A DNA stretch of 64,000 bases from Alphaproteobacteria bacterium (lineage in GTDB: Bacteria; Pseudomonadota; Alphaproteobacteria; UBA9219): positions 29-64,028 of the forward strand of contig JANRKK010000008.1 of the NCBI GenBank assembly GCA_033763555.1, read 5' to 3'. The position numbers and the translations under genes are program-made. The notes below the pieces were generated by a model. It was not told where the DNA came from. It ran no database searches and saw only the letters and a program-made list of their open reading frames with translations. Shown here in pieces: positions 12,077 through 59,729 of this stretch. Numbering within the stretch: position 1 is the stretch's first letter; every line of letters begins with the position of its first letter.

Positions 12077-12703
12077 ATGTCTCAAGAGACTGTAACCGTC
12101 ACCGTTCATGTGACGGCTGAAGAATATGAAGCACTGATGGCACATTTCAAGGAAGCGGTAACGCAAGCCATCGTTACGCATAATATTCCGCTTGTGCGCT
12201 CAACCATCAAATTGCATCCCGGCCTGCTGGATGAAGCTTACGGCGACCCCGAAAGCCGCAGCAATTTTGCCCATATGGTTGCCATGCACGGATGCCATGA
12301 GCTTGTCCCGCTTATTCAGGAACAACGGCCGGAGCTTCTGCAAGGCCGAAACCGCCACAACAATACGCCGTTTTCCCTGGCGGTTGCGGGTCATGATGAA
12401 GAAACAGCGCTTGCTTTCTGCGCCGTTGATGACGGCTGTGCAGCACGCGGCAATATATTCAACAGCAATGTCCTGCACATCGCCGCACAACATGGCACAG
12501 ACAAACTGATTCAGGTCATCGCGCAGAAATACCCCAATATGCTGGACGAGCCGAACGATTTGGGTCGGACGCCGCTGGAGGCCGCCAGGTTCTGGAACCG
12601 TTCTTCAGCCGTCGCGACGCTTGAAAGCCTGTTGCCGGAAGCAGAGGTTGAGCGAGGCGAACCAAGACTGCGCCTCGTCGGCGGACAAAAGTTTGCCAGA
12701 TAA
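12077..12703 (+). CDS. Ankyrin repeat protein
   Basis: About four ankyrin-like units: NFAHMVAMHG, NNTPFSLAV, NSNVLHIAAQHG, GRTPLEAA. Confidence 0.8.
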   Translation: MSQETVTVTVHVTAEEYEALMAHFKEAVTQAIVTHNIPLVRSTIKLHPGLLDEAYGDPESRSNFAHMVAMHGCHELVPLIQEQRPELLQGRNRHNNTPFSLAVAGHDEETALAFCAVDDGCAARGNIFNSNVLHIAAQHGTDKLIQVIAQKYPNMLDEPNDLGRTPLEAARFWNRSSAVATLESLLPEAEVERGEPRLRLVGGQKFAR

Positions 12704-12725
12704 GCTTCTTAAAATACGCCTGTTT

Positions 12726-14000
12726 TTAAGCTGCTGATTTTTGCCGGGCGGTTCCTACCGCTCTCTGCCAAACAGCGAACAAATCCTCGGCCAAAACATC
12801 CTGCCAGCTGGCGAGATAGTCGCGGCTGTAGGTGATGGCCGCTTCGCGCATCATCTGATGCAGTGCCGGATCGACGGCGAAACCGCGTAAGGCCCCGGTC
12901 CAATTTTCCACGCCGCTATCGACCACCTGCATCGCAGGCGTATGTTTAAACAATTGTGCAACACCGCTTTGGCGCGAGACCAGAACGGGACAGCCCGAAG
13001 CCATCGCCTCCACCCCCGCCATACTACGGATTTCCACTTCCGACGACAGCGCCAGACCATCGACACTGGCATAGAGCCGTGCCAGTTCATGCGGCGGAAC
13101 AAAACCCGGCAGGCTGACATGCGCGCCGAGGCGCTTCTTCACTTCTTCCGCAGCCGGGCCGACGCCCGCGCAAAGAAAATGCAATGGCACGCCTTCACCG
13201 ATCAGCTTTTCCATTGCACCCGCAAGCGTGTAGATATTCTTGCCGACATCGACGCGACCGACAAACAGCACCAGAATGCGTCCTGGCGGAACGGCATAGT
13301 CACGTTCAACACCCGCGCGGTCGGCACGGTGCGGGCCAAACATATCTTTGTCCACGCCGAGGCGCAAATGATGCACATGCGCCTTGCCGAGAATATTTTC
13401 GGCCAGCTTGTGATCTTCTTCGCGCGTCACCAGCGCCGCGCGACAGAGGCTGACATGGCGCTGTAGCCGCCGCTCCATGCTTTTTTCCTTCCGTTCCGGC
13501 AATTTCCAGGCATCCAGCATTTGGACGCCGAGCCAGCTGCGTCCGAAAATTTTCTCGATCGTCTGGCGCGTAAAAATACGGGTGTAGGACGGCGTATCCG
13601 TGTGAAAGGATGTCACAAGCTGAATGCCGCGCATGCGGCTGACCCGCTCCGCCGTGCGGGCAAAAGCAAAAAACCCGTCGGTGGTATGAATGACATCATA
13701 GGCTGCCAGTTCCCGCGCCAGCGCCGGATGCCAGGGTGATAGATCGGTATGATCGGGCACATAAGGCAAGAATTTCAGTTTTGCCGTGCTGAACACAGGT
13801 GGCAGATGGCGAAAACGCGCGCGCGGGCCCAGCACCTCATCCGGCGCATCGCCGGAAAAATAAACCGTGAGATCAAGCGGCAGATTGCCGGAAGCCGCAG
13901 CGGCGCCCAGACGTTCCCAGCACTTCACATGCCCACCCGCCTGCGGCGAACGGCGCAGGTCGACCAGAACGGCGACACGAAGGGGTGCGGGTGAAGTCAT
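12726..14000 (-). CDS. Glycosyltransferase family 4
   Basis: SFHTD, LFVGRVDVGKN, intact EX7E (EIRSMAGVE)AMASGCPV. Confidence 0.9.
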   Translation of the reverse strand: MTSPAPLRVAVLVDLRRSPQAGGHVKCWERLGAAAASGNLPLDLTVYFSGDAPDEVLGPRARFRHLPPVFSTAKLKFLPYVPDHTDLSPWHPALARELAAYDVIHTTDGFFAFARTAERVSRMRGIQLVTSFHTDTPSYTRIFTRQTIEKIFGRSWLGVQMLDAWKLPERKEKSMERRLQRHVSLCRAALVTREEDHKLAENILGKAHVHHLRLGVDKDMFGPHRADRAGVERDYAVPPGRILVLFVGRVDVGKNIYTLAGAMEKLIGEGVPLHFLCAGVGPAAEEVKKRLGAHVSLPGFVPPHELARLYASVDGLALSSEVEIRSMAGVEAMASGCPVLVSRQSGVAQLFKHTPAMQVVDSGVENWTGALRGFAVDPALHQMMREAAITYSRDYLASWQDVLAEDLFAVWQRAVGTARQKSAA

Positions 14001-14114
14001 GATTTCAGAAATAACTCGTTTTGTGGGTGTGCCGTTATTGTGCAGCGCCCCTAACAAAATTCAAAGCGTTGCGCTGAGATGCTCATACGCCGCTCTATAC
14101 AACCGGGGATGGAA

Positions 14115-14143
14115 TTGACAAGCCAAAAAAGAGTAAATAGTCT
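14115..14143 (+). promoter_or_regulatory. Sigma70-type promoter
   Basis: TTGACA-N17-TAGTCT upstream of the small ORF at 14220. Confidence 0.6.
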
Positions 14144-14219
14144 TTAATCTGAGGTAACGGTATTTCTGGCCTCGTAACGATCTGTGGTTGAAATTGAATC
14201 AATAACAAGGAGGTACGCC

Positions 14220-14402
14220 ATGTCCGGTTTCTTTGATAATCCTCAAAAACGTGTGGAAGGTATTTTTTCACAGCAGGAAGAGAAGCGATTTCCAGGCTTG
14301 CATGACAGGCTAAGAGAGTTTGAAAAAGAAAAATGGGAAGAACCATCCCGTCCTGCCGGAGCTTTGCAGGAAACAGAGGCTCCCGCACTTACCCACCGCT
14401 AA
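14220..14402 (+). CDS. Small (60 aa) charged hypothetical protein
   Basis: Strong AAGGAGGT RBS, own promoter and downstream terminator. Confidence 0.7.
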   Translation: MSGFFDNPQKRVEGIFSQQEEKRFPGLHDRLREFEKEKWEEPSRPAGALQETEAPALTHR

Positions 14403-14420
14403 ACTGAACTGAAGATCGAT

Positions 14421-14454
14421 AAGAGGCTGCCGCATTCCGTGCGGTGGCCTCTTT
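14421..14454 (+). terminator. Intrinsic terminator
   Basis: aagaggctgccgca-ttccg-tgcggtggcctctt followed by T-rich sequence. Confidence 0.7.
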
Positions 14455-14493
14455 GCTTGTCTGGCGGCAGGGTTCCAGTATAGTCCTGCCGTC

Positions 14494-15909: not shown

Positions 15910-15928
15910 CGTCTGATTGTCGGTAAAG

Positions 15929-16234
15929 CTAGAGTTTCAAAGCTGTATTATTTTCACGACTTCTACGGCGCAAACAGCCTGCACGATCAATTGCCGATGC
16001 CTGCCATGAAATATTTTCGAGCAGCTTAAGGGCCGCGCAGGCAAAACCAAGCTTTAAAGAAACGTCAGCCACATAACCGGGCACAAAAACCCCACCAACA
16101 GCATCAATGGCCAACAAGGCAGCTGCCGTCACACCAGCATAAACACCGCCTGCATAGAGGCATTCAATTCCACCTTTGGGGGAATTGAAAACTTCCTTAA
16201 CAGCTGTTTTCCAATTTTGAAGAGCATTGCTCAT
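15929..16234 (-). CDS. Small hydrophobic orphan protein
   Basis: 101-aa ORF filling an AT-richer gap; Gly/Ala-rich hydrophobic core. Confidence 0.6.
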   Translation of the reverse strand: MSNALQNWKTAVKEVFNSPKGGIECLYAGGVYAGVTAAALLAIDAVGGVFVPGYVADVSLKLGFACAALKLLENISWQASAIDRAGCLRRRSRENNTALKL

Positions 16235-16334
16235 TTTTATTTATCCCTTTGCCTTAATACCGCCCATTATACACGGCGAAGGCACATGCTTCAAAAACAA
16301 CAATAGTTTCGCGGTTGGTTAACGCAGCTAAGTC

Positions 16335-17006: not shown

Positions 17007-17057
17007 GAAGAGGCGGGAAAAGATGCGCGGGATAGCGGGGATTGTCGGGGAATCCCC

Positions 17058-17072
17058 TTAAAACTTGCTTAA
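17058..17072. promoter_or_regulatory. CtrA-type box
   Basis: TTAA-aacttgc-TTAA upstream of the Flp pilins; second imperfect TTCA-N7-TTAA at 17185-17199. Confidence 0.65.
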
Positions 17073-17267
17073 GCGGATAATGATCTGCCAGCCGCATCAA
17101 GCAGATGGTGCGCGATGTTTCAAAATTCGTTCTTGTTTGCTTGCAAACTACCGCGTTGTTTTTACGGGCAAAAACGCTTCTTCCTTCACGATTTCTTAAG
17201 CGCCGTCGGTATAGTCTGGGCCTATTCCTGTTTCGACAGTTTTTGTTCAACACATAAGGAGAGAGCC

Positions 17268-17426
17268 ATGCAGAATATTACACGCTTCCTGACGGAAGAA
17301 AAAGGCGCGACAGCCATTGAATACGGCCTGATCGCTTCGCTGATCGCCGTCGCTATCGTCGGCGTTCTGGTTACCCTGGGCCCAGCTTTGTCGGGCATCT
17401 TCCAGACGGTGCAGAATAACCTCTAA
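17268..17426 (+). CDS. flp: Flp family type IVb pilin (copy 1)
   Basis: EKG/ATAIEYGLIASLIAVAI motif; AAGGAG RBS. Confidence 0.95.
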   Translation: MQNITRFLTEEKGATAIEYGLIASLIAVAIVGVLVTLGPALSGIFQTVQNNL

Positions 17427-17449
17427 TTTAATATAAGAAGGAGGACTTC

Positions 17450-17611
17450 ATGCGTCAGATTCTATCCCGCTTCCGCCAGGAAGACAAAGGCGCGACAGCC
17501 ATCGAATACGGCTTGATCGCCTCGTTGATCGCGGTTGCTATTGTCGGTGTGCTTTTGACATTGGGACCGACTCTGGCCGGGGCCTTCCAAACCGTCCAGA
17601 ACAGTCTCTAG
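17450..17611 (+). CDS. flp: Flp family type IVb pilin (copy 2, absent from ORF track)
   Basis: MRQILSRFRQEDKG/ATAIEYGLIASLIAVAIVGVLLTLGPTLAGAFQTVQNSL; AAGGAGG RBS. Confidence 0.95.
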   Translation: MRQILSRFRQEDKGATAIEYGLIASLIAVAIVGVLLTLGPTLAGAFQTVQNSL

Positions 17612-17704
17612 GCTGAACCTGCTCCGGTCACGAACCGGAGCACGGGAATCCCTCTCCCGAACGGCGCGTCCCGCATGGCGGCGCGCCGTTGGCGTTTCCG
17701 GAGG

Positions 17705-19870: not shown

Positions 19871-19890
19871 GGTAAATTTTGTCCGGTATC

Positions 19891-20283: not shown

Positions 20284-21015
20284 TTATTGCCGCCCCTCAG
20301 CCGGAACGATTTCCAGCCGATAGCCCACGGCAGGTTCGGTGACGATGTAGCGCGGGAAGGACGGCTCGGCTTCCAGCTTGCGGCGCAGGGCGCCGATGCG
20401 TTTCTGCAGATCGCGCTGACGCTCATCACCGCCATCCGGCTTTCCCCACAAGGCGCGCTCGATGCGCCCGAAGGTCAATACGCGCCCGCCATGCTGCGCC
20501 AGCAGGCGCAGCAACGCATATTCCTCATCCTCCAGCGGAACTTTTTGGTCGTCGCGCGTCACTTCCGACGCCTGCAGCCGGATGCTGAGATTGCCTGTTT
20601 TGACGCTGCCCGCTTCGTTCCAGCCGGAACGGGCCGCCTGCTGCTGCAAGGCAGCGCGGACACGCTGCACAAGATCGCGCACAGCAAAAGGCTTGGTCAT
20701 GTAATCATCCGCCCCTTGTTCCAGTGCGGCTATTTTTTCGCTGTCCTCGGTGCGGCCAGATAAAATCAGGATTGGCATATCACTGGTGAGGCGGACATCG
20801 CACACCACCTGCTGCCCGTCGATATCGGGGAGACCAAGATCGAGGATCATCAGGCTCGGCTTCGCGGTATGCACCAGCGTGATGGCTTCTTCGGCGGTCG
20901 AAGCCTCCAGTACATTGAAACCTTCAGCCTGCAGCGAGAGGCGCAGAAATTTGCGTACATGCGGTTCATCATCAACGACAAGGATGCGCGGCACGGGCGG
21001 TGCGGATGGGGGCAT
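20284..21015 (-). CDS. OmpR-family response regulator, KdpE-like
   Basis: ILVVDDE, LDLGLPDIDG, GADDYMTKPF, LRRKLEAEPSFPRYIVTEPAVGYRL. Confidence 0.88.
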   Translation of the reverse strand: MPPSAPPVPRILVVDDEPHVRKFLRLSLQAEGFNVLEASTAEEAITLVHTAKPSLMILDLGLPDIDGQQVVCDVRLTSDMPILILSGRTEDSEKIAALEQGADDYMTKPFAVRDLVQRVRAALQQQAARSGWNEAGSVKTGNLSIRLQASEVTRDDQKVPLEDEEYALLRLLAQHGGRVLTFGRIERALWGKPDGGDERQRDLQKRIGALRRKLEAEPSFPRYIVTEPAVGYRLEIVPAEGRQ

Positions 21016-21106
21016 ATGGGAAGGGTAGCATAAAACAGGCAAAACCAAGAAACTTGCCTAAAGTCCCTTATTTTCATATGTCAGGCTGCATTAGACGAGA
21101 GGATAT

Positions 21107-22315
21107 ATGATTAACCATTTCGCCCTGACCGAGCGCCATATTCAGCACGGCCTAACCGACAAGGATTTCTCTGACTATGCAGGCGTTCCTGTCGTCAGCT
21201 TCCGACTTTCAGAGTTTCCGCACTGGCAGAAACTGGAGTGTGGCGACCACCTAACATATCCCGAAATCAAAGAAAGAGCCGATGCGATATTAAAAAGATT
21301 AAAAGAAGCAAATATGCCGCTTGAACACGAACGAATGGTATCTCTTGCAGCACAAAGCATCACAGTTACGTCGCCTACAACCACCCCTATTCATACGGAA
21401 ACAAATATTCCTAAAATTCCTTCGGAATACTTTGCTGCCATTCTTCAAAACGGCATCGTCGCTGCTATGAATTCTGAAGCGACACCTCCGGTGTGTCCAA
21501 CTTTTATTGACACAAGCACAGTCGTCAAAAAGGCACTCACAGCAAGTACGGCCTTAGTGTTACGCAACGCCTCGCGCGCCGAAGCTAAGAAAATCTGGGC
21601 AGATAATGCTAAGGTTTCAATGGAACCCGTGCATTCCTTTCCTGACGACGGCACATTAGATCTGTTTACTGATCTTCACGAAATGAGACATACAGCCCAA
21701 ACCGATCTGGTTCTGGATAATGCCGATGAAAATGTTTTGAGCTACTCCCAAGAACTGGATGCCGATTTATTTGCTGAAGCCGCAATGCAAGGGTTCGAGG
21801 CCGGCCGACAAACACTTCTTTTAATACGCCATGCACGGTATGTCGGGGCACTTTATAATCCCCCAACACATTTAACACGTCCTGCGATTGAATCACTTGA
21901 GAATGGAAAATATCCTCCCACCTTTCATGCCGTGGCAGGTTCCGTATGGGAAATTCGCCTTCGCCTTTTCATGGAAATGAGCGGTGAAGACCATAGAAAA
22001 ATTGATTCTTCCCGGTTTCAAAAAACATTCCGTATACTCTACCAAGACAAACGAAAATCTTCTGACCCCAATGTTATCGAGGCAGCTGCACATTGGGCAA
22101 CTGCCCAGAAGCCTGAAGCGATATTAACAACTTTATGGCGCCTGACAGGCGATCAGATACTCACTAATCCGTTATCTCACAAAATCGCAAGCTGCATTAT
22201 TGAAGGCGCAAAATTTTTTGACCCCACCTTGATCAACGACCCACATCCACAAAGTCAACCTCATAATGTGCAGACAGAGATGCGATCAGCGCTGCAAAAG
22301 CTAGCGCTATCCTAA
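21107..22315 (+). CDS. Orphan protein with HExxH zinc-metallopeptidase-like motif
   Basis: DLHEMRH followed by QELDADLFA; GAGGA RBS; AT-richer than flanks. Confidence 0.7.
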   Translation: MINHFALTERHIQHGLTDKDFSDYAGVPVVSFRLSEFPHWQKLECGDHLTYPEIKERADAILKRLKEANMPLEHERMVSLAAQSITVTSPTTTPIHTETNIPKIPSEYFAAILQNGIVAAMNSEATPPVCPTFIDTSTVVKKALTASTALVLRNASRAEAKKIWADNAKVSMEPVHSFPDDGTLDLFTDLHEMRHTAQTDLVLDNADENVLSYSQELDADLFAEAAMQGFEAGRQTLLLIRHARYVGALYNPPTHLTRPAIESLENGKYPPTFHAVAGSVWEIRLRLFMEMSGEDHRKIDSSRFQKTFRILYQDKRKSSDPNVIEAAAHWATAQKPEAILTTLWRLTGDQILTNPLSHKIASCIIEGAKFFDPTLINDPHPQSQPHNVQTEMRSALQKLALS

Positions 22316-25617: not shown

Positions 25618-26403
25618 CTAGTCCTTTTTATCGGTAATGATCGTGAATTTGCCTTTGCCCTGCATCACTTCGGCAAAAGCACTGTGCGTGAAGATGGAGA
25701 AGACGAGGATAGGGATTTTGCTCTGCCGCGCCAGCGATATGGCCGAGGTGTCCATCACCTGCAAATCCTGCGACAAGACGTCCATATAGCTGAGACGGTC
25801 ATAGCGCTTGGCATCCTTTACCTTGGTCGGATCGGCACTGTAAACGCCATCGACCTTGGTGGCCTTGAGCAGCGCGTCACACTGCATTTCTGAAGCACGC
25901 AGTGCGGCAGCAGAGTCGGTGGTGAAAAACGGATTGCCTGTTCCGGCGGCGAAAATCACGACGCGGCCTTTTTCCATGTGGCGCATGGCGCGGCGGCGGA
26001 TATAGGGCTCGCACACCGAGGACATCGGAATGGCCGACAGTACGCGCGTCGGCACACCGATTTTTTCCAGCGCATTCTGCATGGCAAGCGCGTTGATGAC
26101 CGTCGCCAGCATGCCCATGTAATCGGCCGTAGCGCGATCCATGCCCTGTGCCGCGCCGGAAACACCGCGGAAGATATTGCCGCCGCCGATGACGGCGCAG
26201 ACCTCAACGCCCATCGCCACGACTTCCTTGATTTCCTCAGCAACGCGGTCGACGGTTTCGGGCTCCAGCCCGTAATCGCGCTCACCCATCAGGGCTTCGC
26301 CCGAGAGCTTCAGCAGCACGCGCTTGTAGCGCGCCGCGGCATTCGCCGCCGTTTTCGCAGGAGGTGTCGCCATCTTCCGTTTCTCCGCCAGATTGTTTGC
26401 CAT
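25618..26403 (-). CDS. pyrH: UMP kinase
   Basis: [35 protein letters not shown]; GGAGG RBS before ATG 26403. Confidence 0.98.
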
Positions 26404-26603
26404 AGGGGTTGCCTCCCGTCCATGCGCCGCAAAATCCGCCGCATTATAGCGGCCCCGCCGAGGAAAAACAGGGTTTAATCTCAAACGCTTGGGCGGTTAA
26501 TGAGGGGTTTGCAAGTAAATCCGATGCCGTTTGACTTTTGGGGCGGCGGAAATTGGGGTAGTATGGGGCGGTATTTTTGAAGGGATTTAGAGGAGTTATT
26601 AAG

Positions 26604-27071
26604 ATGGCAAAATTTTTATATATTGAAGATAGCGACAGCGTTCGCAATTCCGCAGTCTTTCTCATAGAGACAGTTTTTCCTAATGACACTTGTGTTACGG
26701 CAATTGATTACCATGACGCTACTCGAAAACTGGCTGATGAAGGCCCTTTCGATTTTATCGTTTCGGATTTTAAATATGCAGGCCGTAACGATACGGGCAT
26801 TAATAAACAGGGAGAAGGGTGTCTTGACCTTCTGGAAGACCTGCAAGGCAATCCACTGCAAGACCATTTTGTCATTTACTCGGGCACAGATAAGCCCACC
26901 ATAGTAGCGACCCTCTCTGCGCGAGGTATTTCTTTGGCAGAAGAACGGATTTTCGACAAGTTTGGCGGCGCTAGCATTGAAGACGCTATCAACTACGCTA
27001 TCAAAAACTTCACACCCGGCACACCCAGCGGTTCAACGCCAGGTTCGACGCCGCCAATGGCGACGCCTTAA
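26604..27071 (+). CDS. Stand-alone receiver (CheY-like) domain protein 1
   Basis: LYIEDS, FDFIVSD (phospho-Asp position), IYSG, IFDK; Pro/Thr-rich tail; AGGAG RBS. Confidence 0.75.
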   Translation: MAKFLYIEDSDSVRNSAVFLIETVFPNDTCVTAIDYHDATRKLADEGPFDFIVSDFKYAGRNDTGINKQGEGCLDLLEDLQGNPLQDHFVIYSGTDKPTIVATLSARGISLAEERIFDKFGGASIEDAINYAIKNFTPGTPSGSTPGSTPPMATP

Positions 27072-27097
27072 TTCGTCAGGCTTTAAGGAACACAAAA

Positions 27098-27568
27098 ATG
27101 CCGAAGATGCTGTATTGCGAAGATGATGCTCATCTCACAGATGCTATGAAGATTATAGCAGAGCTTGAATTTCCGGATGTGGAACTTGTTTTTGCTAAAA
27201 ACAGCGAAGAAGCTATCACGGCACTCGCTAATCAAGGATCCTTCGATTTCATTATTGCCGACTTTGGTTATCGTCATAAGGGGTGGCGTGAAGAACCGCG
27301 TTTCGTTCAAGCGAATTGCCTGAGTTTGCTTCGGTATATGAAGCAAGCGGGAATAACCACGCCTGTGATTATTCAGTCAGGCCAAATCAAATCTTTTATG
27401 CACGCAGTCTTGCAAGCTCAAGGATTTGAACTACCTCAAGAACTTATTTTTGAGAGAGACACCTTAATGACAGATATCGTCCAATATGCGATTGGCTGTT
27501 TTTGTCCTACCGCTTCAAACGGGAAGCCGTCTCCCAAACCGGAAAAGCCGGAGCCCAGTTTCTTCTAA
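27098..27568 (+). CDS. Stand-alone receiver domain protein 2 (conserved Lys replaced by Arg)
   Basis: LYCEDD, FDFIIAD, IQSG, IFER; Pro/Lys-rich tail; paralog of upstream gene. Confidence 0.72.
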   Translation: MPKMLYCEDDAHLTDAMKIIAELEFPDVELVFAKNSEEAITALANQGSFDFIIADFGYRHKGWREEPRFVQANCLSLLRYMKQAGITTPVIIQSGQIKSFMHAVLQAQGFELPQELIFERDTLMTDIVQYAIGCFCPTASNGKPSPKPEKPEPSFF

Positions 27569-27574
27569 AGCTTT

Positions 27575-28495
27575 TTAGCTCGCCATCTTGGCGACTTCGG
27601 CGGCGAAATCGTCGGCGACCTTCTCAATACCTTCGCCGAGCTGATAGCGCACAAAGCCAGCCAGTTTCACAGGCGCACCGAGTGTTTTGGACGCGTTCTC
27701 GATCACCTGCGCGATGCGCGTTTCGCCGTCGACGACATAGACCTGCTCCAGCAGCACAACATCTTCGTAATATTTACGGATGCGACCTTCGACCATCTTG
27801 GCGATCACTTCCGGCGGCTTGCCGCTGGCTTTCGCCTGTTCCGACAGAATATCGCGTTCGCGTTGCAGGGCTTTCGCATCGACATCGGCGATCGTCAGCG
27901 CTTCTGGCTTTGCCGCCGCCACATGCATGGCGATCTGTTTGCCCAGTTCCTGCAACTTTCCGGCATCCGCCGCGGATTCCAGCGCGACCAGCACGCCGAT
28001 CTTGCCGAGGTTCGGCGCCAGCGCATTATGCATATAGGTGGCGATGGTACCTTGCGGAACCGAAAGCTGCACGGCACGGCGGAGATTCATATTCTCACCG
28101 ATGGTGGCGACGAGGTTGGTCAGTGCATCCTGCACCGTGGCGCTGCCGGGATAGGGCTTGCCCTTCAGCGCTTCGGCATCCGCGCCTGTTTCGAGCGCGA
28201 TTTTTGCCGCCTGCAGGGCGAAAGCCTGAAACGCATCGTTGCGCGCGACGAAATCGGTTTCCGCGTTCACTTCGACCACAGCGGCCTTGGTACCGCCTGC
28301 GGCCACAGCAACCAGACCTTCGGCCGCGACGCGACCGGACTTCTTGGCGGCGGCCGACAGGCCCTTTTTGCGCAGCCAGTCCACAGCGGCTTCCATGTCG
28401 CCGTTGGTTTCGGCCAGCGCCTTTTTGCAATCCATCATGCCTGCGCCCGTTTTTTCGCGCAGGTCCTTGACCATGTTCGCCGTAATCTCAGCCAT
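27575..28495 (-). CDS. tsf: Elongation factor Ts
   Basis: [37 protein letters not shown]. Confidence 0.98.
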
Positions 28496-30506: not shown

Positions 30507-30563
30507 ATAAAAGACGTTTTTTACATCTTTTATTAACATAAAAGCTGTATTAATTGTTTTTAT
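30507..30563. promoter_or_regulatory. Two tandem operator-like inverted repeats
   Basis: ATAAAAG-N13-CTTTTAT (30507-30533) and ATAAAAG-N12-TTTTTAT (30538-30563, overlapping the regulator ATG). Confidence 0.5.
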
Positions 30564-31191
30564 GACGCCTGACCTTGTACGCGCCGCACGCGGCTTTTTG
30601 AACTGGCAACAGCGCGATCTTGCCGACACCGCCGGGCTGTCCCTCTCCGCGGTCAACAACTATGAACGGAATAAAGGCAAAACCCGCGATGTGACCATCC
30701 AAGCCATGGTGGGCGCCCTGGAGGCGGCGGGCATCGAATTTCTGCCCCATGGCGCTATCCGGAAAGCCGACGAGACGGCCAGCGTGCAGACTTTGACGGG
30801 CCCGGATTTCATCCAGAAGATGAACGAGGATATGTACAACGCCATCCGGACGCCGGGGCAGGAGATCTTCACCTGCTCAACGGATGAAAGCCAATGGTTT
30901 GAGCCGAATGTTAAAGAAGCAAGCCAACGCTATTATGCATGGCGCAAAAAAATGGCGGCGCGGGAGCTGTACCTTGTTGCCGAAGGCAATACCGTGTTTG
31001 AAAGCGCGAAACAGAATTACCGTTTTCTGCCCGCCAATCTTATCGGCAAGATTACCTATTGTATTTATACCGACCGGATTGCCCTGATTTCCTGGCGCAA
31101 GAAACAGGCCTTTATCCTCAGGGGCGACCAGCTGGTCGAACCCTTCCGGGAACAGTTTAAATTTCTCTGGCGTTTGGGGCGGAAGGCTTAG
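30562..31191 (+). CDS. XRE-family HTH transcriptional regulator with C-terminal extension domain
   Basis: VRAARGFLNWQQRDLADTAGLSLSAVNNYER...ALEAAGIEF. Confidence 0.88.
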   Translation: MTPDLVRAARGFLNWQQRDLADTAGLSLSAVNNYERNKGKTRDVTIQAMVGALEAAGIEFLPHGAIRKADETASVQTLTGPDFIQKMNEDMYNAIRTPGQEIFTCSTDESQWFEPNVKEASQRYYAWRKKMAARELYLVAEGNTVFESAKQNYRFLPANLIGKITYCIYTDRIALISWRKKQAFILRGDQLVEPFREQFKFLWRLGRKA

Positions 31192-31850
31192 GCCCCTGGC
31201 CTTGGTGGGCCTAAATTCACGCCTGTTCCCATAATAGAACGCACGGGTTCTCTAGAGCAGCGTTTTATAAGTTCGCGGGGACCCAAAGCAGGGACAACAT
31301 ATTTTTGTTCAAACACATCCCAGTCGAGGGGCTGCATACAGGCTGCCAGTTTCTCAACACAGGCATGCCTATCAAAATCGTCTTTGTCTTGTTGGGAAGG
31401 ACACTGAGCTTTCATTTCAGCCATACATGCCGACCATTTTCTCATAAGTGCTGTGATGGTTCGATGAGGATAACGAGGGGCAAGAAGAAATCCCCCCATG
31501 CCGCGGTCAAGCCAACCCTTTATAAATTCTCCATAGAGCACGACATGCGCACCTGTCTCACTGTTTTCTAAAACGGCTATGTCGCCCACATCATGCGTCG
31601 GCATATCAAGCGCCGCGCGTAAAATATAAATATTCAGCCCCGACAACCTCATGGTACAGCCCGACGCGGAACTGTGATTTGCCAGCGGCGCTTCAAGCTC
31701 GACACCGCGACGTATGGCCCATTCCATTGCTGTGGAAAGAAGATCCTTGTAGTCGCGCTGAAAAGGCAAAAAGATTTGAGGATCCAAGCTGCAGTAGACA
31801 TCAATGAGCTGGCGGTCATCCAGCGAGGAAGAATGAATGAATTTAGTCAT
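31188..31850 (-). CDS. Orphan hypothetical protein
   Basis: GGAGGAG RBS before ATG 31850; AT-richer; directly downstream of accB. Confidence 0.7.
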   Translation of the reverse strand: MTKFIHSSSLDDRQLIDVYCSLDPQIFLPFQRDYKDLLSTAMEWAIRRGVELEAPLANHSSASGCTMRLSGLNIYILRAALDMPTHDVGDIAVLENSETGAHVVLYGEFIKGWLDRGMGGFLLAPRYPHRTITALMRKWSACMAEMKAQCPSQQDKDDFDRHACVEKLAACMQPLDWDVFEQKYVVPALGPRELIKRCSREPVRSIMGTGVNLGPPRPGA

Positions 31851-31911
31851 GATCTCCTCCAAAACATGTCTTCAACAAAAGTTGACTTAAAATTAGTCTG
31901 TACCTGCAAAT

Positions 31912-34996: not shown

Positions 34997-35251
34997 ATGC
35001 CATCCATATCTTCGTTACGCGCAGCAGCAAGGGAAGTATTCTGGAATTCGGCGGAAGAATTGGTGGAACTGGTACCCTTTTGCGCGATGTCGTTAACCAC
35101 GCCCGTGGCTATGGGCATCGGTTTAGCTCTAAGCCCAACCAGATCGTGTGTAGCTGCTGCTGGCCTTGGTGGCATACTGATAGGGGGAGCAGCAGGATTT
35201 CTTGCGAGTCTTAGTATCTACAAAAAACTTGATTCCCTAAACCAAGCATAA
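34997..35251 (+). CDS. Small hydrophobic orphan protein
   Basis: AGGAG RBS; 84 aa with two hydrophobic Gly/Ala segments; between coaBC and dut. Confidence 0.6.
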
Positions 35252-35737: not shown

Positions 35738-36787
35738 ATGCCCTCTCCTTCCGCCATTGCCCGGCAATGGAATTTCGGCCTGCCGGTTACGGCGTTGAGC
35801 GCTAATCGCAACGGCGATTGGATGGCTGCGGCGCTGGGTGACGGATCGCTGCGTTTGCTGCCCGCCAGCGACGAAGCGGAACAACCGAAAGAGCTGAAAC
35901 TCCACAAAGGCATTTCGCTGTCACTGCAGCCGGATGCCGATGCGCATGCGTTTCTGTCAGGTGGTGACGATGGTTGCGTTTATATTATCGATCCACAGCT
36001 GGATGCGCCGACGCTGTTGGCCGAGCATAAAAACCAGTGGATCGACCATGTGGCGTCCGCGCCGGAAGGCGGATTCCGCGCCTATTCCGTTGGCAAGCAG
36101 GCGCATATGCTGAACGCCGAAGGCGAAAGCCTTGCACCGCTGCAGGCGCCGAGCAGCATCGGCGGCCTGGCTTTCAGCCCCAACGGCAAACGCCTTGCCG
36201 CTAGCCATTACAACGGTGTGAGCCTGGTTTGGACGAAAGCGAAAGAATCCGCGCCGACAAAACTGGCCTGGAAAGGTTCGCATCTGGGCGTGATCTGGCA
36301 TCCGGATGGAAAAATTCTACTAACCTCACTGCAGGAAAATGCACTGCATGGCTGGCGCCTTTCGGACAATAATGAGATGCGGATGCAGGGCTACGCCGCC
36401 AAAGTGCATTCGATGGGCTTTTCAGCGAAAGGCCGCTATCTGGCGACCAGCGGAGCGGAGGAAGTGGTGTGCTGGCCTTTCTTCGGCGGTGGGCCGTGGG
36501 GCAAAACGCCGCTGACGCTGGGCGGACGCGAAGCGCGGCTGGTGACACAGGTCGCCGCGCATCCCAAAGATGAAATGGTCGCGGCAGGTTACGATGACGG
36601 CATGGTTATCCTTGCGCCGCTGGATGGCCGCATGGAAGTGATGATCCACCCGCCTGTCGGACAAGGTGCATCGGTGACAGGACTGGCATGGAATGGCGCA
36701 GGTAATTGCCTGTTCGCCGGGAATGAGAAAGGCTCCCTGACCCTCTTCACGCTGGAAAGCGTGGGGCGGAGCGTACGAAGCGCCTAG
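35738..36787 (+). CDS. WD40 repeat protein
   Basis: SGGDDG, WIDHVA, LAFSPNGKRLA, LQENALHGWRL, MRMQGY..KV. Confidence 0.88.
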   Translation: MPSPSAIARQWNFGLPVTALSANRNGDWMAAALGDGSLRLLPASDEAEQPKELKLHKGISLSLQPDADAHAFLSGGDDGCVYIIDPQLDAPTLLAEHKNQWIDHVASAPEGGFRAYSVGKQAHMLNAEGESLAPLQAPSSIGGLAFSPNGKRLAASHYNGVSLVWTKAKESAPTKLAWKGSHLGVIWHPDGKILLTSLQENALHGWRLSDNNEMRMQGYAAKVHSMGFSAKGRYLATSGAEEVVCWPFFGGGPWGKTPLTLGGREARLVTQVAAHPKDEMVAAGYDDGMVILAPLDGRMEVMIHPPVGQGASVTGLAWNGAGNCLFAGNEKGSLTLFTLESVGRSVRSA

Positions 36788-39295: not shown

Positions 39296-39535
39296 CTAGG
39301 ACGGGCTTCTGTCAGATAGAAAGTCTCTCAACCTTCCTAGGCATCGCCCAAATCCTGAAGGACGGCGCGGCGGTTCAGCATGAACCATGGCAGCGAATTG
39401 GGCTCTTAATCTTTCGGTGTCTTTGGGCGTCGTTGTGTAAACCCACACACCATTGATTTGTGTACGAACCAACGGAAGCGGCTGCCCTCTCTCCTGTATA
39501 TAGATGACATCTGGTTCGGAGTAATTTCCGCTCAT
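39296..39535 (-). CDS. Small orphan hypothetical protein
   Basis: 79-aa ORF filling an AT-richer gap; no recognisable motif. Confidence 0.45.
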   Translation of the reverse strand: MSGNYSEPDVIYIQERGQPLPLVRTQINGVWVYTTTPKDTERLRAQFAAMVHAEPPRRPSGFGRCLGRLRDFLSDRSPS

Positions 39536-57167: not shown

Positions 57168-58021
57168 CCCGCCTCGCCCGATAGCCAGTTTATATTCACG
57201 CCGCGATGTTCGGTTTGCAGGGCGTCGTGCAGCAAGGGGAAAAGCTTCCGCAGCCTTTCATCGAACTGCCAGGGCGGATTGATCAGGATAAAACCGCAAC
57301 CATTCAGGCGGTCATGCCGCGTTTCTTCGTGATAGATAAATTCGGCGCATAATTGCTTGGCGATGCCGCTGGCCGCCAGCGCTTCATGAAAGCGCCAGAT
57401 GGCCGGGCGTTCTTTCACAGGATACCAGATGGCATAGAGTCCCTGCGGCCAGCGGGCATAAGCCTCGCGGATCGCCTGCGCCAACCTGTCGAATTCATCC
57501 GGCGTTTCATAGGGCGGGTCGATCAGGACAAGCCCGCGCTTTTCCGGCAAAGGCAGAAAGCCGCGCAGAGCCTCATAGCCGTCACGGTGATGTACCTGCG
57601 TCTGGGCAAAGGGACGCATCTGCCGCCGGAGCGCCTCGGCATCGTCCCTATGCAATTCGCAGGCGATGAGGCGATCCTGCGATCGCAAAAGCCGCGCCAC
57701 AAGAAGCGGCGAGCCGGGATAGAACTGAAAGGCTTCCGCCGTTCCCGCCGACCAGCCGGGATTGAAATTTTTCAGCACATCGTAATAGGCGGCAAGATCA
57801 GGCACAGGCGGCGCGGTAAGCAGTTTATAAATGCCATCCTGCGCCTCGGATGTTTTTTGCGCACGTTCATCCTGCAAATCGTAAAACCCCGTTCCCGCAT
57901 GCGTATCCAGCACGCCGAAAGGCGTTTCCTTAAGGCGCAAATGCTCCAGCAACAAGGTTAAGACAACATGCTTAACGACGTCGCTGATGTTACCTGCATG
58001 ATAAATATGGCGGTAATTCAT
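57164..58021 (-). CDS. rlmJ: 23S rRNA (A2030-N6)-methyltransferase
   Basis: MNYRHIYHAGN..DVVKH, DTHAG.G.Y, YPGSP, LIDPPYE, INPPW. Confidence 0.96.
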   Translation of the reverse strand: MNYRHIYHAGNISDVVKHVVLTLLLEHLRLKETPFGVLDTHAGTGFYDLQDERAQKTSEAQDGIYKLLTAPPVPDLAAYYDVLKNFNPGWSAGTAEAFQFYPGSPLLVARLLRSQDRLIACELHRDDAEALRRQMRPFAQTQVHHRDGYEALRGFLPLPEKRGLVLIDPPYETPDEFDRLAQAIREAYARWPQGLYAIWYPVKERPAIWRFHEALAASGIAKQLCAEFIYHEETRHDRLNGCGFILINPPWQFDERLRKLFPLLHDALQTEHRGVNINWLSGEAG

Positions 58022-58085
58022 GTTGAAGACATGACGTCAAATCCGTAAAATTGTCCATATTTGAAATTTTTTCTGGCATTCTTTT

Positions 58086-59729
58086 ATGAAGATCGCGCAA
58101 CGTTTTTTATTATCCATTGCCTTTCAAGCGGCAGCCTTGGCCGTGTCCAGCCGTGCGCTTGCCGAGCCGCTGGCAACTTCTGCTGAAATTCCTCCCCCCG
58201 ACATGATGTCGCGCGCTTCCACCCTTGACCTTATGCCCGATAGATGGCGGCAGCTGATGCCTGAGGCCCGGATCATACCACCCATGATCCCCAATCTGCC
58301 CGGCGTGAGTTATCGCGGCTGGCGATTTATCGCCCTGCCCGACGCTACAGCAAGCCCGGCCTATCAACTGGCTCCCCTGCTGCCGGATGCGCCGGGCGCG
58401 GCAGAAAAACTGGCGGTTTTCCTGAAGCCCGCTAAAGGTAAAAAGGTACCCTCGGTGACCGACATTGCTTTTTACTTCGCGGCAGCGGGCGGCTGGATCG
58501 ACACTGAAAAATATTTGATGCAGGAGTCAGGTGTTGCGCACAAGGCTGCTCTGCTCAGCTTCACGCTGATGGCAACCACACTGTCCGATCAGGACGCCGT
58601 GAATGCGGCATCCATTAGGGCGAAAGCCGCCGCTAAAGGCGCAGAACGCCGCGCCGCCTACAATGAGCTCTATACGGCAACCGCCTTGCAAAAAACGCAT
58701 CATGATTTCTTTATCTGGCTGGCTCAGCAATACCAAAATGCTGAAACACTGGAAGGCCTGACCGTCAATGCTGTTCTGGGGGAAACAAGGCAAATTCTAC
58801 AGATCCGCAAAAAGGCAAAACCGACGCTGACATTTACTGGTGAATCCCTATCCGCAGCTGCGGATCTTATTGTGGGCGGCGTACTTAAAAAACAGGCGCA
58901 GCAAGTGGCCGAGTTCCGGAAGACATATGCGGCTTTTGACGCGCGGATCGATGCTGCCCTGCAGGCGGCCTGCAACGCCGCCGATTTGCATGAATCTATT
59001 GGCTATGGGATCGCGGGTTCGGAAAGTCTCTTTAAGCCAGAGATTGTCAATGTTGATACAGGTGCGACAGGGCTTTTCCAATATAAGGAACAGTCCTGGT
59101 TGCAGGCGATCAAGGTCCTGCCACAGAGCCGATATGGGCTCGCGATTCTCGATGCCTCTCCCGCTTTGCGTGAAATCCTTAAATGTATTGTCCCCACAGG
59201 CAAAGACAGCAATGGGCGCACGCTGTATGGCGTCGCCAATAAAAATCAATGCAAGACTGTTATGGCTGCGCGGCGCGACCCGGCGTTGAATGCCTTTGTC
59301 GGCATGAGCGAAGCGCGAACAAGTTTTATTGTTCTACAAACGCGACTGGGGCGTGACCCGAAACCATCGGAAATGTGGCTGGCAAATATTCTCAGTCCGG
59401 CGCGGACGGCGGATTTTATATTGGCAGCCGTCAAGAATCCGGAAGGAACAGTTGACCAATTGCTGGACGCCAAGGGGAATCGCCTGATTTCCGATCCGAT
59501 GGTTCAGCAGAATTATCTCTTCCGCGATATTCGAGACCGACAGGCTGTTCCCACGCTTGCTGCTAATGTTCTGCGACGCGCCGAAGCACAGGTAAATGAA
59601 GTCATAACGGGCATTGTGCTTTCAGGTGCACCGCCACAGACCATTCAGGAGTTGCGGGAAAAAGTCATCCTGACTTGCAATCCACCTCTGCCGCGCGACA
59701 TCTACCCGGGTAACCGCCCGGCGCCTTAA
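58086..59729 (+). CDS. Secreted protein with SLT-like lytic transglycosylase domain
   Basis: Signal peptide; IAGSESLFKP (catalytic ES), ATGLFQY..QSWL, RRDPALNA. Confidence 0.7.
   Translation: MKIAQRFLLSIAFQAAALAVSSRALAEPLATSAEIPPPDMMSRASTLDLMPDRWRQLMPEARIIPPMIPNLPGVSYRGWRFIALPDATASPAYQLAPLLPDAPGAAEKLAVFLKPAKGKKVPSVTDIAFYFAAAGGWIDTEKYLMQESGVAHKAALLSFTLMATTLSDQDAVNAASIRAKAAAKGAERRAAYNELYTATALQKTHHDFFIWLAQQYQNAETLEGLTVNAVLGETRQILQIRKKAKPTLTFTGESLSAAADLIVGGVLKKQAQQVAEFRKTYAAFDARIDAALQAACNAADLHESIGYGIAGSESLFKPEIVNVDTGATGLFQYKEQSWLQAIKVLPQSRYGLAILDASPALREILKCIVPTGKDSNGRTLYGVANKNQCKTVMAARRDPALNAFVGMSEARTSFIVLQTRLGRDPKPSEMWLANILSPARTADFILAAVKNPEGTVDQLLDAKGNRLISDPMVQQNYLFRDIRDRQAVPTLAANVLRRAEAQVNEVITGIVLSGAPPQTIQELREKVILTCNPPLPRDIYPGNRPAP

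Follow-up and report, generated by a model that had tools for sequence, protein, structure and literature searches.

Background

The closest described systems are the Dot/Icm type IVB machines of Legionella and Coxiella, whose substrate genes are scattered, occur in one species or in a patchy pattern, evolve fast and include paralogues; the substrates bear C-terminal signals, some of which DotM reads. Substrates of type IVA (VirB/VirD4) systems, such as the Vir proteins of Agrobacterium and the Beps of Bartonella, carry positively charged C-terminal tails. The IncI1 (R64-type) apparatus consists of a type IVB transfer system and a type IVb thin pilus. The CtrA motifs of Caulobacter and alphaproteobacteria are TTAACCAT and TTAA-N7-TTAA. 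Arginines of Legionella DotM bind Glu-rich signals, and across species Glu-rich tails track Arg/Lys at the DotM interface, as the authors of that study note (PMC5802825). In Pseudomonas putida IsoF, a type IVB system is reported to kill bacteria by delivering a toxic protein effector into them (PMC9519443).

The window (the whole stretch of DNA analysed, 64,000 nt) comes from an uncultured Micavibrio-like alphaproteobacterium (UBA9219 lineage; contig JANRKK010000008.1, GCA_033763555.1), a host outside the Legionellales. An earlier note had listed 14 orphan ORFs in this window as a candidate scattered effector set. All 14 are present and are given below with the other features; ORFs are named by their first coordinate.

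11969..11976, + strand: TTAACCAT box (CtrA-type half-site), 108 nt upstream of ORF 12077
12077..12703, + strand: 208-aa ankyrin-repeat protein (Ank_2, 2.5e-7, 31.6 bits with the cut-off at 27.3); GC3 0.57; two Pro among the last 25 residues; homologue in 0/40 relatives
14220..14402, + strand: doubtful ORF of 60 codons in the divergent GT4|phosphoglucomutase intergenic/promoter region, from six-frame translation
15929..16234, - strand: 101-aa orphan; GC3 0.37; tail without Pro; TTAACCA 82 nt upstream; found in 0/5 close relatives
21107..22315, + strand: 402-aa member of an HExxH+E (gluzincin-like) family with a variable Pro-rich tail
26604..27071, + strand: 155-aa divergent receiver-like protein, paralogue 1; tail ...TPGTPSGSTPGSTPPMATP
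27098..27568, + strand: 156-aa divergent receiver-like protein, paralogue 2; tail ...KPSPKPEKPEPSFF
31188..31862, - strand: 224-aa orphan downstream of accB; GC3 0.48; four Pro in the last 25 residues; net charge +4; found in 0/5 close relatives
34997..35251, + strand: doubtful ORF of 84 codons between coaBC and dut with a TTAACCA box inside; may be just the dut promoter region; found in 0/5 relatives
39296..39556, - strand: doubtful ORF of 86 codons upstream of uvrC, missed by the gene caller
42550..44097, - strand: 515-aa orphan whose C-terminal part repeats a PxWR(D/A)AVP-like motif; found in 0/40 relatives
44114..44791, - strand: 225-aa tandem paralogue of the C-terminal part of 42550 (34% identity)
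49184..50455, - strand: 423-aa protein with an N-terminal J-domain (1.2e-5, HPD motif)
51100..51390, + strand: 96-aa Gly/Ala-rich small orphan after ndk; found in 0/5 relatives
54751..55173, + strand: 140-aa orphan; GC3 0.43; four Pro in the last 25 residues; sub-threshold for the gene caller; found in 0/5 relatives
59735..60202, - strand: 155-aa membrane protein, after dotM in 11/13 related loci; no family in library scans
60205..61440, - strand: DotM/IcmP, type IVB coupling-complex protein (Pfam DotM_C, 6.6e-47)
61463..64000, - strand: DotO/IcmB-like VirB4-family ATPase, C-terminal 845 codons; cut by the contig end, with the rest on contig C12

Type IVB secretion system

The genome encodes a Dot/Icm-like type IVB system, as the earlier note had assumed, consisting of DotM, DotO, DotL, DotN, DotG, DotH, two DotI, a DotE-like protein, DotA and DotD. 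This is the same kind of machine as in Legionella and Coxiella (DotL, DotM, DotN, DotO, DotA, DotG, DotH, DotI and DotD). IcmS was not found in a search that lacked a positive control, which is a weak test of this difference from Legionella/Coxiella. DotM (60205) matches NCBIfam DotM_IcmP_IVB with 2.7e-55 and 187.9 bits, under the equivalog cut-off of 230, and matches Legionella DotM (6sz9_B) with 3.8e-25. In relatives the DotO-like gene encodes 996-1008 aa and is flanked by dotN and dotM. The type IVB genes are chromosomal and occupy six or more loci that lie among housekeeping genes. DotM is found in 38/41 genomes of the host order, including 29/29 of good quality, and in 4/60 other alphaproteobacterial families. 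Since icm genes occur in every good genome of the order, co-occurrence there cannot discriminate.

Judging from the aligned sequences, three of the five Glu-peptide-binding arginine positions of DotM are not basic in the host order, unlike Legionella. Among 14 DotMs of the order, the R196 position carries D/E in 13, R217 is replaced by a non-basic residue in 13 and R315 in 14, while R197 and R314 are kept. The altered arginine patch would fit a signal different from that of Legionella.

Orphan genes

Gene calls were made with our own crude caller. About 11 of the listed ORFs appear to be genuine low-GC3 genes; 14220, 34997 and 39296 are doubtful, and the coding scores of the latter two are negative (-0.12 and -0.13 per codon). 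The orphans had been described as AT-richer, and their GC3 of about 0.37-0.57 is indeed below the genome mean of 0.635 (sd 0.079). Among the 13 ORFs measured (all except 14220), 12 are at or below the 11th GC3 percentile, and 12077 is at the 18th. A Pfam/NCBIfam scan of the same 13 found no family beyond Ank_2 in 12077, the J-domain in 49184 and a sub-threshold receiver domain in 27098. A crude hydrophobicity test found an N-terminal hydrophobic stretch in 0/9 window orphans tested, which agrees with the claimed lack of signal peptides. Matches of 42550 in the Atlas are weak repeat-protein leads at most, and 31188 has a weak paralogue on contig C1.

The claim that orphans split conserved operons was compared at tsf|pyrH, where it stands in part. 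In nine relatives tsf and pyrH lie next to each other, at most about 100 nt apart; several others have different inserts, including a TauE-like protein, an SBP_bac_3 protein, a DUF559 protein and small ORFs. The paralogues 26604 and 27098 share 32% identity, and orthologues of 27098 occupy the same site in two relatives (G011 and G001). These receiver-like orthologues are only 33-37% identical, compared to 81-84% for the flanking Tsf and 87-88% for PyrH. The orphans are species-specific or patchy and fast-evolving. In being dispersed and partly paralogous these candidate substrates also resemble the Legionella/Coxiella repertoires. Eukaryote-like domains are represented by two ankyrin proteins, one J-domain protein and one WD40 protein; the ankyrin and J-domain proteins recall Legionella/Coxiella, but the content is thin compared to those repertoires.

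C-terminal tails

The tails quoted in the earlier note (TPPMATP etc.) are correct, and their description as Pro/basic holds for proline. At least three Pro occur in the last 25 residues of 10/14 listed ORFs (8/11 after dropping the doubtful ones), compared to 157/1078 core proteins (14.6%; binomial p=2e-6). The basic character is weak: K+R is unchanged, and Arg and net charge are modestly raised (mean +1.39 vs +0.65). The tail of 49184 is itself strongly cationic and Pro-rich (five Pro, nine K/R). The putative signal would be compositional and C-terminal, as in Legionella/Coxiella. Asp is at 0.71x in orphan tails, D+E is not raised and, unlike Legionella/Coxiella, no Glu-rich E-block was found. 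The tails are like those of type IVA substrates in being unstructured, net-positive and Arg-enriched, but the machine is of another class, proline is dominant here and the charge shift is modest.

Comparison of the last 25 residues of orphans and core proteins across the genome shows a genuine C-terminal bias. At least three Pro are present in 50/109 low-GC3 proteins without a family (a set that includes at least one machine part, DotA), 22/107 low-GC3 proteins with a family and 157/1078 core proteins; for at least four Pro the counts are 30/109 without a family and 52/1078 core (p=8e-10). Body proline is equal between orphans and core, N-termini have no enrichment, and the GC3 and proline codon choice of the tails are those of the body of the same gene. 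The Pro-rich tail is absent from 59/109 orphans and from 4/14 listed ORFs, including the ankyrin protein 12077. Such tails are also seen on 58086, which is an exported protein, and on DotM's membrane partner. Low-GC3 proteins more often end in proline, whether they have a family or not (12% and 14% vs 5%), which looks like weak selection rather than a signal.

The bias was repeated with the same pipeline in G032, a genome of a different family in the same order (23/59 vs 37/215, p=0.008). Three DotM-negative alphaproteobacterial controls, classed by GC3 only without a Pfam split, had no bias: G089 (GC 59.5%; 9/52 vs 38/177), G049 (GC 62.7%; 5/50 vs 45/226) and G051 (2/48 vs 11/195). Of two DotM-positive genomes from outside the host order, G078 has a trend (11/27 vs 23/94, p=0.13) and G055 has no bias (2/30 vs 13/91). 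The tail bias is confounded with lineage, as both clear positives come from one order.

HExxH and J-domain families

ORF 21107 founds an undescribed, order-restricted HExxH+E peptidase-like family. Its structure model (pLDDT 87) has DPP III as the best solved-structure match (Z 6.9), and clan-MA zinc peptidases make up most of the top 50 rows. The family is found in 16/40 relatives, with 1-7 matches each, and in 0/60 other alphaproteobacterial families. As orthologues in icm-negative genomes would speak against the effector reading, it is relevant that 0/56 DotM-negative alphaproteobacterial families contain this family, the one tested widely. Tails with at least three Pro occur in 39/61 full-length members; the mean tail charge is +1.57 and no member is at or below -3. 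The J-domain family of 49184 has 11 homologues (30-38% identity), and 6/12 members have such Pro-rich tails.

CtrA-type box

We take the TTAACCAT box to be a CtrA half-site by the Caulobacter motif. As in the Caulobacter regulon, CtrA, CckA and SciP are encoded in the genome, the box sites are largely intergenic (61/94 vs 12.4 expected), and the box precedes sciP, flagellin and an Flp pilin gene. Unlike Caulobacter, this genome shows a five- to six-fold enrichment of the box in front of orphans (16/78 vs 21/638), and the box also precedes dotA. The enrichment was not repeated in 400 kb of G032 (3/41 vs 13/177).

Alternative explanations

The orphans could be ordinary, non-secreted, lineage-specific accessory or young genes, of horizontal or de novo origin, with Pro tails that are a by-product of 3'-end evolution or a stability feature unrelated to type IVB secretion. 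The low-GC3 class is mixed, since 107/216 have ordinary families (housekeeping enzymes, about 10 SBP_bac_3 proteins, integrases, a metal-resistance island, defence, T4BSS and pilus genes); therefore, composition alone marks nothing. Unrelated genes at tsf|pyrH in different relatives mark this junction as a general insertion hot spot, terminal Pro is raised across all low-GC3 genes, and the tails are richer in Arg, Ser and Cys too, which random translation would produce. The tail sequence is unconserved even between orthologues, and the bias is unestablished in DotM-positive genomes beyond the host order. However, tail proline (9.2%) exceeds the approximately 6% estimated for random translation of about 47% GC DNA, Gly, Ala and Leu are depleted rather than raised, and low-GC3 genes of the two GC-rich DotM-negative genomes have no bias. 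Tail composition is also kept in the families of 61 and 12 members despite sequence drift, which points to selection on the tail. Overall, non-secreted accessory genes seem a rather unlikely explanation.

Export or display by another route, such as type I secretion, the R64/Tcp-like type IVb filament machine beside dotD or vesicles, is improbable. The tails are unlike type I signals, which are typically acidic or Gly-rich C-termini, and the lack of a signal peptide (hydrophobic leader) or membrane segment in 42/50 Pro-tailed orphans argues against Sec-dependent routes. These points are set against the Tcp/R64-like pilus set (PilO, secretin, TcpQ) close to dotD on C12 and the emphasis on type I and type II secretion in the M. 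aeruginosavorus genome paper (PMC3189940). The pilus set also recalls IncI1, as do the matches to TraO, TraQ, TrbC and TraY; several parts have one of the first three as their best NCBIfam match. These matches and the one relaxase gene in this genome could be explained by a resident machine for conjugation or DNA transfer, with the orphans as unrelated cargo of past transfers. That gene is distant from the T4BSS genes and, unlike in IncI1, neither a linked relaxase (PF03432) nor a plasmid accompanies the system, which is chromosomal, dispersed and order-conserved. The PF03432 relaxase family is present in 19/41 genomes of the order (13/29 good ones, 0-6 copies). Since DotM is in 29/29 good genomes and the relaxase is unlinked, the system is not a typical conjugative element. 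The claimed absence of mobility genes is also borne out, with integrase or transposase families in 0/69 window ORFs scanned, and the DNA-transfer explanation appears very improbable.

Proposed mechanism and significance

The explanation we tentatively adopt, which is possible but short of probable, is that these are lineage-restricted accessory genes, a sizeable fraction of which encode Pro-tailed substrates of the order-wide type IVB system. From sequence, the scattered orphans are plausible candidates for injected proteins. The proposal of an undescribed effector set with its own signal thus keeps its T4BSS, its restricted, fast-evolving genes and its tail bias, but it is weakened by the heterogeneous class, the thin eukaryote-like content and a bias unestablished outside the order.

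In the proposed mechanism, accessory genes would have entered singly or in pairs between conserved housekeeping genes; candidate substrates are 21107, 49184, 26604/27098, 31188, 42550/44114 and 54751. The proteins would be made in the cytoplasm without signal peptides and may present a disordered, Pro-rich, Asp-poor, slightly cationic tail, conserved in composition but not in sequence, to DotL-DotM-DotN. The Glu-binding arginine patch of this putative receptor would have been remodelled in the host order. DotO/DotA/DotG/DotH/DotD would then push the proteins into the contacted cell. The CtrA-type box on part of the set and on dotA in this genome suggests stage-specific expression.

The findings do not point to a eukaryotic host, and the target may with at least equal likelihood be bacterial prey. 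Compared to the reported P. putida IsoF system, the system here is order-wide, is spread over at least six loci and has a large candidate substrate set. In a predator-like lineage, protein delivery into other bacteria, as in P. putida IsoF, would be the natural reading.

Proline-rich tails of low-GC3 genes

The source genome (G000; 1.97 Mb, 55% GC, 46 contigs, with the window at bases 29-64028 of contig C8) has an excess of proline at the C-terminal ends of its low-GC3 proteins. Among 1744 genes, proline makes up 7.7% of the last 25 residues in the 224 genes with GC3 <0.55 versus 5.1% in the 1112 genes with GC3 >=0.62 (p=5e-9). Proline in the protein body is 5.0% in both groups and the N-termini have no excess. 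A Pfam scan (E<=1e-6) of the 216 low-GC3 genes of at least 100 codons found a family for 107 and none for 109. The genes with a family include housekeeping enzymes, about ten SBP_bac_3 proteins, glycosyltransferases and integrases, as well as a metal-resistance island, defence genes, pilus genes and components of the T4BSS (type IVB secretion system). An earlier note had named a missing C-terminal bias relative to core proteins as grounds against its reading of the orphans, and the bias was recovered: at least three prolines occur in the last 25 residues of 50/109 (46%) of the low-GC3 genes without a family, compared with 22/107 (21%) of those with a family and 157/1078 (14.6%) of core genes. 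At least four occur in 30/109, 8/107 and 52/1078, respectively. Since proline at the last residue is raised in every low-GC3 class, that part of the bias is not specific.

The tails of the no-family genes are also raised in Arg (1.25x), Ser (1.25x), Asn (1.38x) and Cys (1.8x) and lowered in Asp (0.71x), Met (0.51x), Ala (0.76x) and Leu (0.82x), and 24% of them contain PxxP versus 6%. The same note had described the tails as basic, which holds to a modest degree for mean net charge (+1.39 versus +0.65, p=8e-4) and for Arg, but not for K+R content (14.5% versus 13.9%, no difference). The Glu-rich E-block signal is absent, with D+E making up 9.6% of the last 25 residues in orphans versus 11.2% in core proteins. 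By a crude test, a hydrophobic stretch at the N-terminus and a membrane segment are both missing from 42 of the 50 Pro-tailed orphans.

Two other sources of the tails were rejected. Random translation does not account for them, as proline is above expectation, Gly, Ala and Leu are down, and GC-rich controls have no effect. Read-through into native GC-rich DNA or terminator stems is likewise rejected: tail GC3 (0.48) equals that of the gene body (0.47), the choice of proline codons tracks the gene itself rather than the core genome, and neither Gly nor Ala is raised.

The same pipeline was applied to control genomes, with low GC3 defined as below the mean minus 1 sd and the measure being at least three Pro in the last 25 residues. 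The control samples were 167-400 kb and their genes were classed by GC3 alone.

Genes with at least three Pro in the last 25 residues, by genome (DotM; GC; low-GC3 genes; core genes; p)
G000, source genome: DotM yes; 55%; 79/237; 159/1081; 7e-9
G032, another family of the same order: DotM yes; 60.5%; 23/59; 37/215; 0.008
G051: DotM no; 41%; 2/48; 11/195; 0.66
G089: DotM no; 59.5%; 9/52; 38/177; 0.61
G049: DotM no; 62.7%; 5/50; 45/226; 0.23
G078, outside the order: DotM yes; 64%; 11/27; 23/94; 0.13
G055, outside the order: DotM yes; 45%; 2/30; 13/91; 0.69

Therefore, the bias is real, is not an artefact of GC content, and is present in two families of the order. G078 also has four tandem low-GC3 paralogues (loci L196-L205, contig C4 at about 18-23 kb) that share the tail ...SMPRPSG..SDEP.

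Type IVB secretion system and DotM

The components of the T4BSS are spread over several contigs of G000:
Window 60205-61440: DotM
ORF running off the contig that holds the window: DotO-like ATPase
C7: dotG, dotH (Pfam 4.1e-74) and two dotI
C36: dotE-like
C43: dotN (IcmJ_DotN_IVB 3.9e-23)
C21: dotL, DotL-like, 815 aa (TrbC_conju 1.3e-109)
C12: dotD (6.1e-30), adjoining a TrbN-like transglycosylase and near Tcp/R64-like pilus genes
C40:5855-8611 (+): dotA (DotA/TraY 331 bits, above cut-off)

The coupling proteins DotL, DotM and DotN and the core or inner-membrane proteins DotG, DotH, DotD, DotI, DotA and DotO identify the system as type IVB. DotL, DotM and DotN all score under the NCBIfam equivalog cut-offs and are therefore divergent members. 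The IcmS profile (PF12608) had no match in G000, but this search is weak since the control genomes gave none either. In relatives the gene order is dotG-x-dotE-like-x-x-x-dotN-dotO-dotM-155aa-dotL, and in 11 of 13 related loci dotM is followed by the gene for the 155-aa membrane protein.

DotM was found in 38 of 41 genomes of the order (three families), including all 29 of good quality, and in 4 of 60 other alphaproteobacterial families. A PF03432 relaxase was found in 19/41 genomes (13/29 good ones) at 0-6 copies, and the one in G000 is on C30, apart from the T4BSS genes. This pattern is more in keeping with a resident protein-secretion organelle than with a conjugative element, with PF03432 as the single family on which the relaxase count is based. 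The C30 relaxase (58020-58328, +), the only PF03432 gene of G000, lies beside a P-type ATPase and amid many low-GC3 orphans at 45-62 kb, and this stretch is probably a small mobilisable island. On C12 (27-45 kb), no more than about 5 kb separates dotD and the TrbN-like transglycosylase from type IVb pilus genes of the Tcp/R64-like kind (PilO, secretin, TcpQ); this recalls IncI, in which a type IVB apparatus is paired with a thin pilus.

Five arginines of Legionella DotM are required for binding of Glu-rich effector peptides, and across species Glu-rich tails accompany Arg/Lys at the DotM interface, as the structure authors put it (PMC5802825). In a phmmer alignment, R196, R197, R217, R314 and R315 of Legionella DotM (6sz9_B) correspond to D217, R218, T238, R342 and T343 of the window DotM. 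Of 14 DotMs of the order, 13 have D or E at the R196 site and 13 a non-basic residue at the R217 site; the R315 site is non-basic and R197 and R314 are retained in all 14. These substitutions would be compatible with the absence of acidic tails here.

The metagenome-assembled genomes that hold related DotM loci are labelled 'Alphaproteobacteria bacterium' or 'Bdellovibrionales bacterium', and NCBI places Micavibrio under Bdellovibrionales. The literature searched, including parts of PMC3189940, PMC12428579 and PMC8896642, gave no account of a type IV or IVB system for Micavibrio or Micavibrionales; the first of these, the M. aeruginosavorus genome paper, states that no type III or IV system is evident.

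Orphan genes of the window

The window has an ordinary alphaproteobacterial backbone according to Pfam and NCBIfam scans of its 69 ORFs. It includes ccmF, putA, recO, dxr-cdsA-uppS-frr-pyrH, tsf-rpsB, aroQ-accB, coaBC, dut, uvrC, lysS, ndk and purN. The earlier note held that 14 ORFs between these genes are an undescribed set of Dot/Icm effectors with a Pro/basic C-terminal signal. All 14 are present where it placed them (named here by their start in the window: 12077, 14220, 15929, 21107, 26604, 27098, 31188, 34997, 39296, 42550, 44114, 49184, 51100 and 54751). Ten of them have at least three Pro in the last 25 residues (p=2e-6), and the family scan of the window found no integrase or transposase family, in line with the statement that mobility genes are missing.

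The AT-richness ascribed to the set is seen as low GC3 in 12 of the 13 ORFs measured, none of which exceeds the 11th percentile of 1744 G000 genes called by codon usage trained on the genome's long ORFs; it holds less well for 12077 (18th percentile), and 14220 is outside the measured set. GC3 is about 0.37-0.54 in the listed ORFs versus about 0.65-0.78 in core genes, with gene calls here and throughout made by a simple home-made caller. Three of the ORFs are doubtful genes. ORF 14220 (14220-14402) has 60 codons and lies inside a divergent promoter region, and coding scores are negative for 34997 and 39296.

Family matches are confined to two of the listed ORFs. ORF 12077 has an ankyrin match (Ank_2 31.6 bits, gathering cut-off 27.3) and 49184 a J-domain with HPD; the receiver match of 27098 is sub-threshold. 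ORFs 26604 and 27098 are paralogues (32% identity), as are 44114 and the C-terminal part of 42550 (34%); an Atlas search of 42550 gave weak repeat-protein leads only. Eukaryote-like domains comprise the ankyrin repeats of 12077 and of one C32 gene, the J-domain of 49184 and the WD40 protein at 35738, with no others among the 216 low-GC3 genes. We found no pointer to a eukaryotic host.

The window also has several other genes of note:
149-2833 (+): CcmF with a C-terminal thioredoxin-like (AhpC/TSA, Redoxin) domain in one 894-aa ORF
30562-31191 (+): 209-aa XRE-type HTH protein with at least 10 paralogues across the genome
35738-36787 (+): 349-aa WD40 beta-propeller between dut and pgsA, with core-like GC3 (0.66) and no Pro-rich tail
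39560-40564 (-): 334-aa Ala/Pro-rich protein upstream of the doubtful ORF 39296, without a family and core-like in composition
53397-54518 (-): 373 aa, GC3 0.74, very high coding score, no Pfam or NCBIfam family

The protein encoded at 53397-54518 gave nothing in an Atlas search. It is conserved in four of five close relatives (53-64% identity) and therefore belongs with the lineage's core proteins, not with the orphans. The longer opposite-strand ORF 53349-54638 (+) appears to be its shadow.

Insertion at tsf/pyrH and distribution in relatives

The orphans had been said to split conserved operons. This is borne out at tsf/pyrH (window 25618-28495; loci L021-L043 in the comparison), the one junction compared, in 23 relatives, nine of which have a gap of about 100 nt or less. 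In G000 the gap is 1.09 kb and holds the two receiver-like genes. The relatives G011 and G001 (unpublished) have one receiver-like orthologue each at this junction; the orthologues are 33-37% identical, compared with 81-84% for Tsf and 87-88% for PyrH. Inserts in other relatives encode two small paralogues, TauE-like, SBP_bac_3 and DUF559 proteins, and a small lipoprotein-like ORF. The variety of inserts and the low identity of the orthologues make tsf/pyrH an insertion hot spot across the order with fast-evolving occupants.

The listed ORFs are sparsely distributed among relatives, which are not independent of one another; G001 and G067, which enter some of the counts, are unpublished genomes.

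Homologues of the listed ORFs
42550: 0/40 relatives
12077: 0/40 relatives
27098: weak matches in 4/40 relatives
49184: one clear homologue among 40 relatives; 11 homologues in a collection of 5.8 billion proteins
31188, 54706 (listed ORF 54751), 34997, 51076 (listed ORF 51100) and 15929: each 0/5 close relatives

HExxH, J-domain and receiver-like families

A profile built on ORF 21107 found 85 representatives among 1.84 billion proteins. H191, H195 and E216 do not vary across 40 members and E192 hardly does, and HE..H is present in 58 of 61. ORF 21107 thus has the gluzincin arrangement of HExxH with a downstream Glu as third ligand, and on this observed motif we read it as a member of an undescribed gluzincin-like family. 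An AlphaFold model from 40 sequences reached pLDDT 87, while that from a 3-sequence alignment was unusable (pLDDT 37). Foldseek of the model against the PDB gave no match at E<=0.001. The best VIA-align match was DPP III (Z 6.9, with an rmsd of 5.0 over 182 aligned residues), and the top 50 are mostly clan-MA zinc peptidases, all at Z <8. The predicted similarity in fold to these peptidases is suggestive only.

Sixteen of 40 relatives carry the HExxH family, at 1-7 matches per relative, and none of 60 other alphaproteobacterial families does. A dedicated effector set should lack orthologues in icm-negative relatives, and the family is indeed absent from all 56 of these families that are without DotM. 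In 61 full-length members, proline makes up 12.4% of the sequence past the motif (A/V)EYF(N/S)P(D/G)L versus 5.6% of the body. At least three Pro are present in 39 of the 61 tails, which have a mean charge of +1.57 with none at -3 or below.

ORF 49184 has the HPD motif in its sequence and was counted as a J-domain protein at a DnaJ score of 25.7 bits (cut-off 27.8); precomputed annotation assigns PF00226 to it and to 7 of its 11 homologues. Six of 12 members of the J-domain family have at least three Pro in the tail. The Response_reg match of 27098 and 26604 failed the cut-off (15.5 versus 30.2 bits). A three-member profile matches the first half of solved receiver domains (E 0.003-0.1), and E8, D9 and D55 are invariant. 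ORFs 26604 and 27098 are receiver-like, short of assignment to the receiver family.

CtrA-type box

An unbiased k-mer scan found TTAACCA within 200 nt upstream of 16/78 no-family orphans versus 21/638 other genes (p=2e-7), far ahead of all others in 210 same-composition permutations. Fourteen of the 16 sites are in the forward orientation and 62-141 nt upstream. Within the window the box stands upstream of 12077 and 15929, and it is also found inside 34997, 172 nt upstream of dut. Of the 94 sites of the motif TTAACCAT in the genome, 61 are intergenic versus 12.4 expected, and the motif is found upstream of sciP and flagellin. A full TTAA-N7-TTAA site at window 17058-17072 precedes two tandem Flp/Fap pilin genes (17115-17426 and 17450-17611, +). 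Both TTAACCAT and TTAA-N7-TTAA are what we take to be the CtrA motifs of Caulobacter.

CtrA is encoded in G000 outside the window (419 bits, above cut-off), as are CckA, SciP and flagellar regulators. The response regulator at window 20284-21048 was considered as CtrA and ruled out. TTAACCA also lies 73 nt upstream of dotA/traY, and judging from this site at least one gene of the machine may share CtrA-type control with the orphans. Enrichment of the box was absent from 400 kb of G032 (3/41 versus 13/177), and in the controls its rarity precludes a judgement; therefore, it is a lead for G000 only.

Interpretation

The best-supported account of the orphans, which we hold tentatively, is that many of them would be substrates of the T4BSS, recognised through a tail that is Pro-rich, acid-poor and mildly cationic. 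The main rival, somewhat less likely, takes them for ordinary young accessory genes and gives their disordered ends some other cause or function. The tail bias is confounded with lineage; beyond the order it is not established, with a trend only in G078 and none in G055. In the HExxH and J-domain families the tails keep their composition as their sequence drifts, which is how a compositional signal, or another selected disordered function, would look.

If the orphans are secreted, bacterial prey is a serious alternative as their target. This rests on relatedness to predators, on IncI-like pilus genes close to dotD, on the receiver-like and J-domain candidates, and on the precedent of a bacteria-killing type IVB system reported in P. 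putida (PMC9519443). Taken as a whole, the following fuller scenario is improbable. The whole Micavibrio-like order of epibiotic predators would have domesticated a mating apparatus of the IncI type and would use it to inject proteins into bacterial prey. The apparatus would consist of the type IVB channel and a thin type IVb pilus. Its cargo would be the fast-turning orphans, among them a new zinc-peptidase family, J-domain proteins that could seize prey DnaK, and receiver decoys that could drain prey two-component signalling. The cationic, acid-poor and Pro-rich disordered tail would be a new type IVB signal, read by a DotM with a rebuilt arginine patch, and CtrA would partly switch on expression in the attack stage.

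The HExxH proteins form a new peptidase-like family of defined distribution, and the tail rule provides a simple way of listing candidate effectors in uncultured relatives. Should the Pro-rich tail be the signal, type IVB systems would have a second type of signal, and this would be a worked case of the DotM-substrate co-evolution proposed by the authors of the DotM structure (PMC5802825). An order-wide T4BSS with recognisable candidate substrates would carry Dot/Icm-type protein injection beyond Legionellales, and it would offer a concrete and testable mechanism for how epibiotic predators such as Micavibrio may kill or drain their prey.
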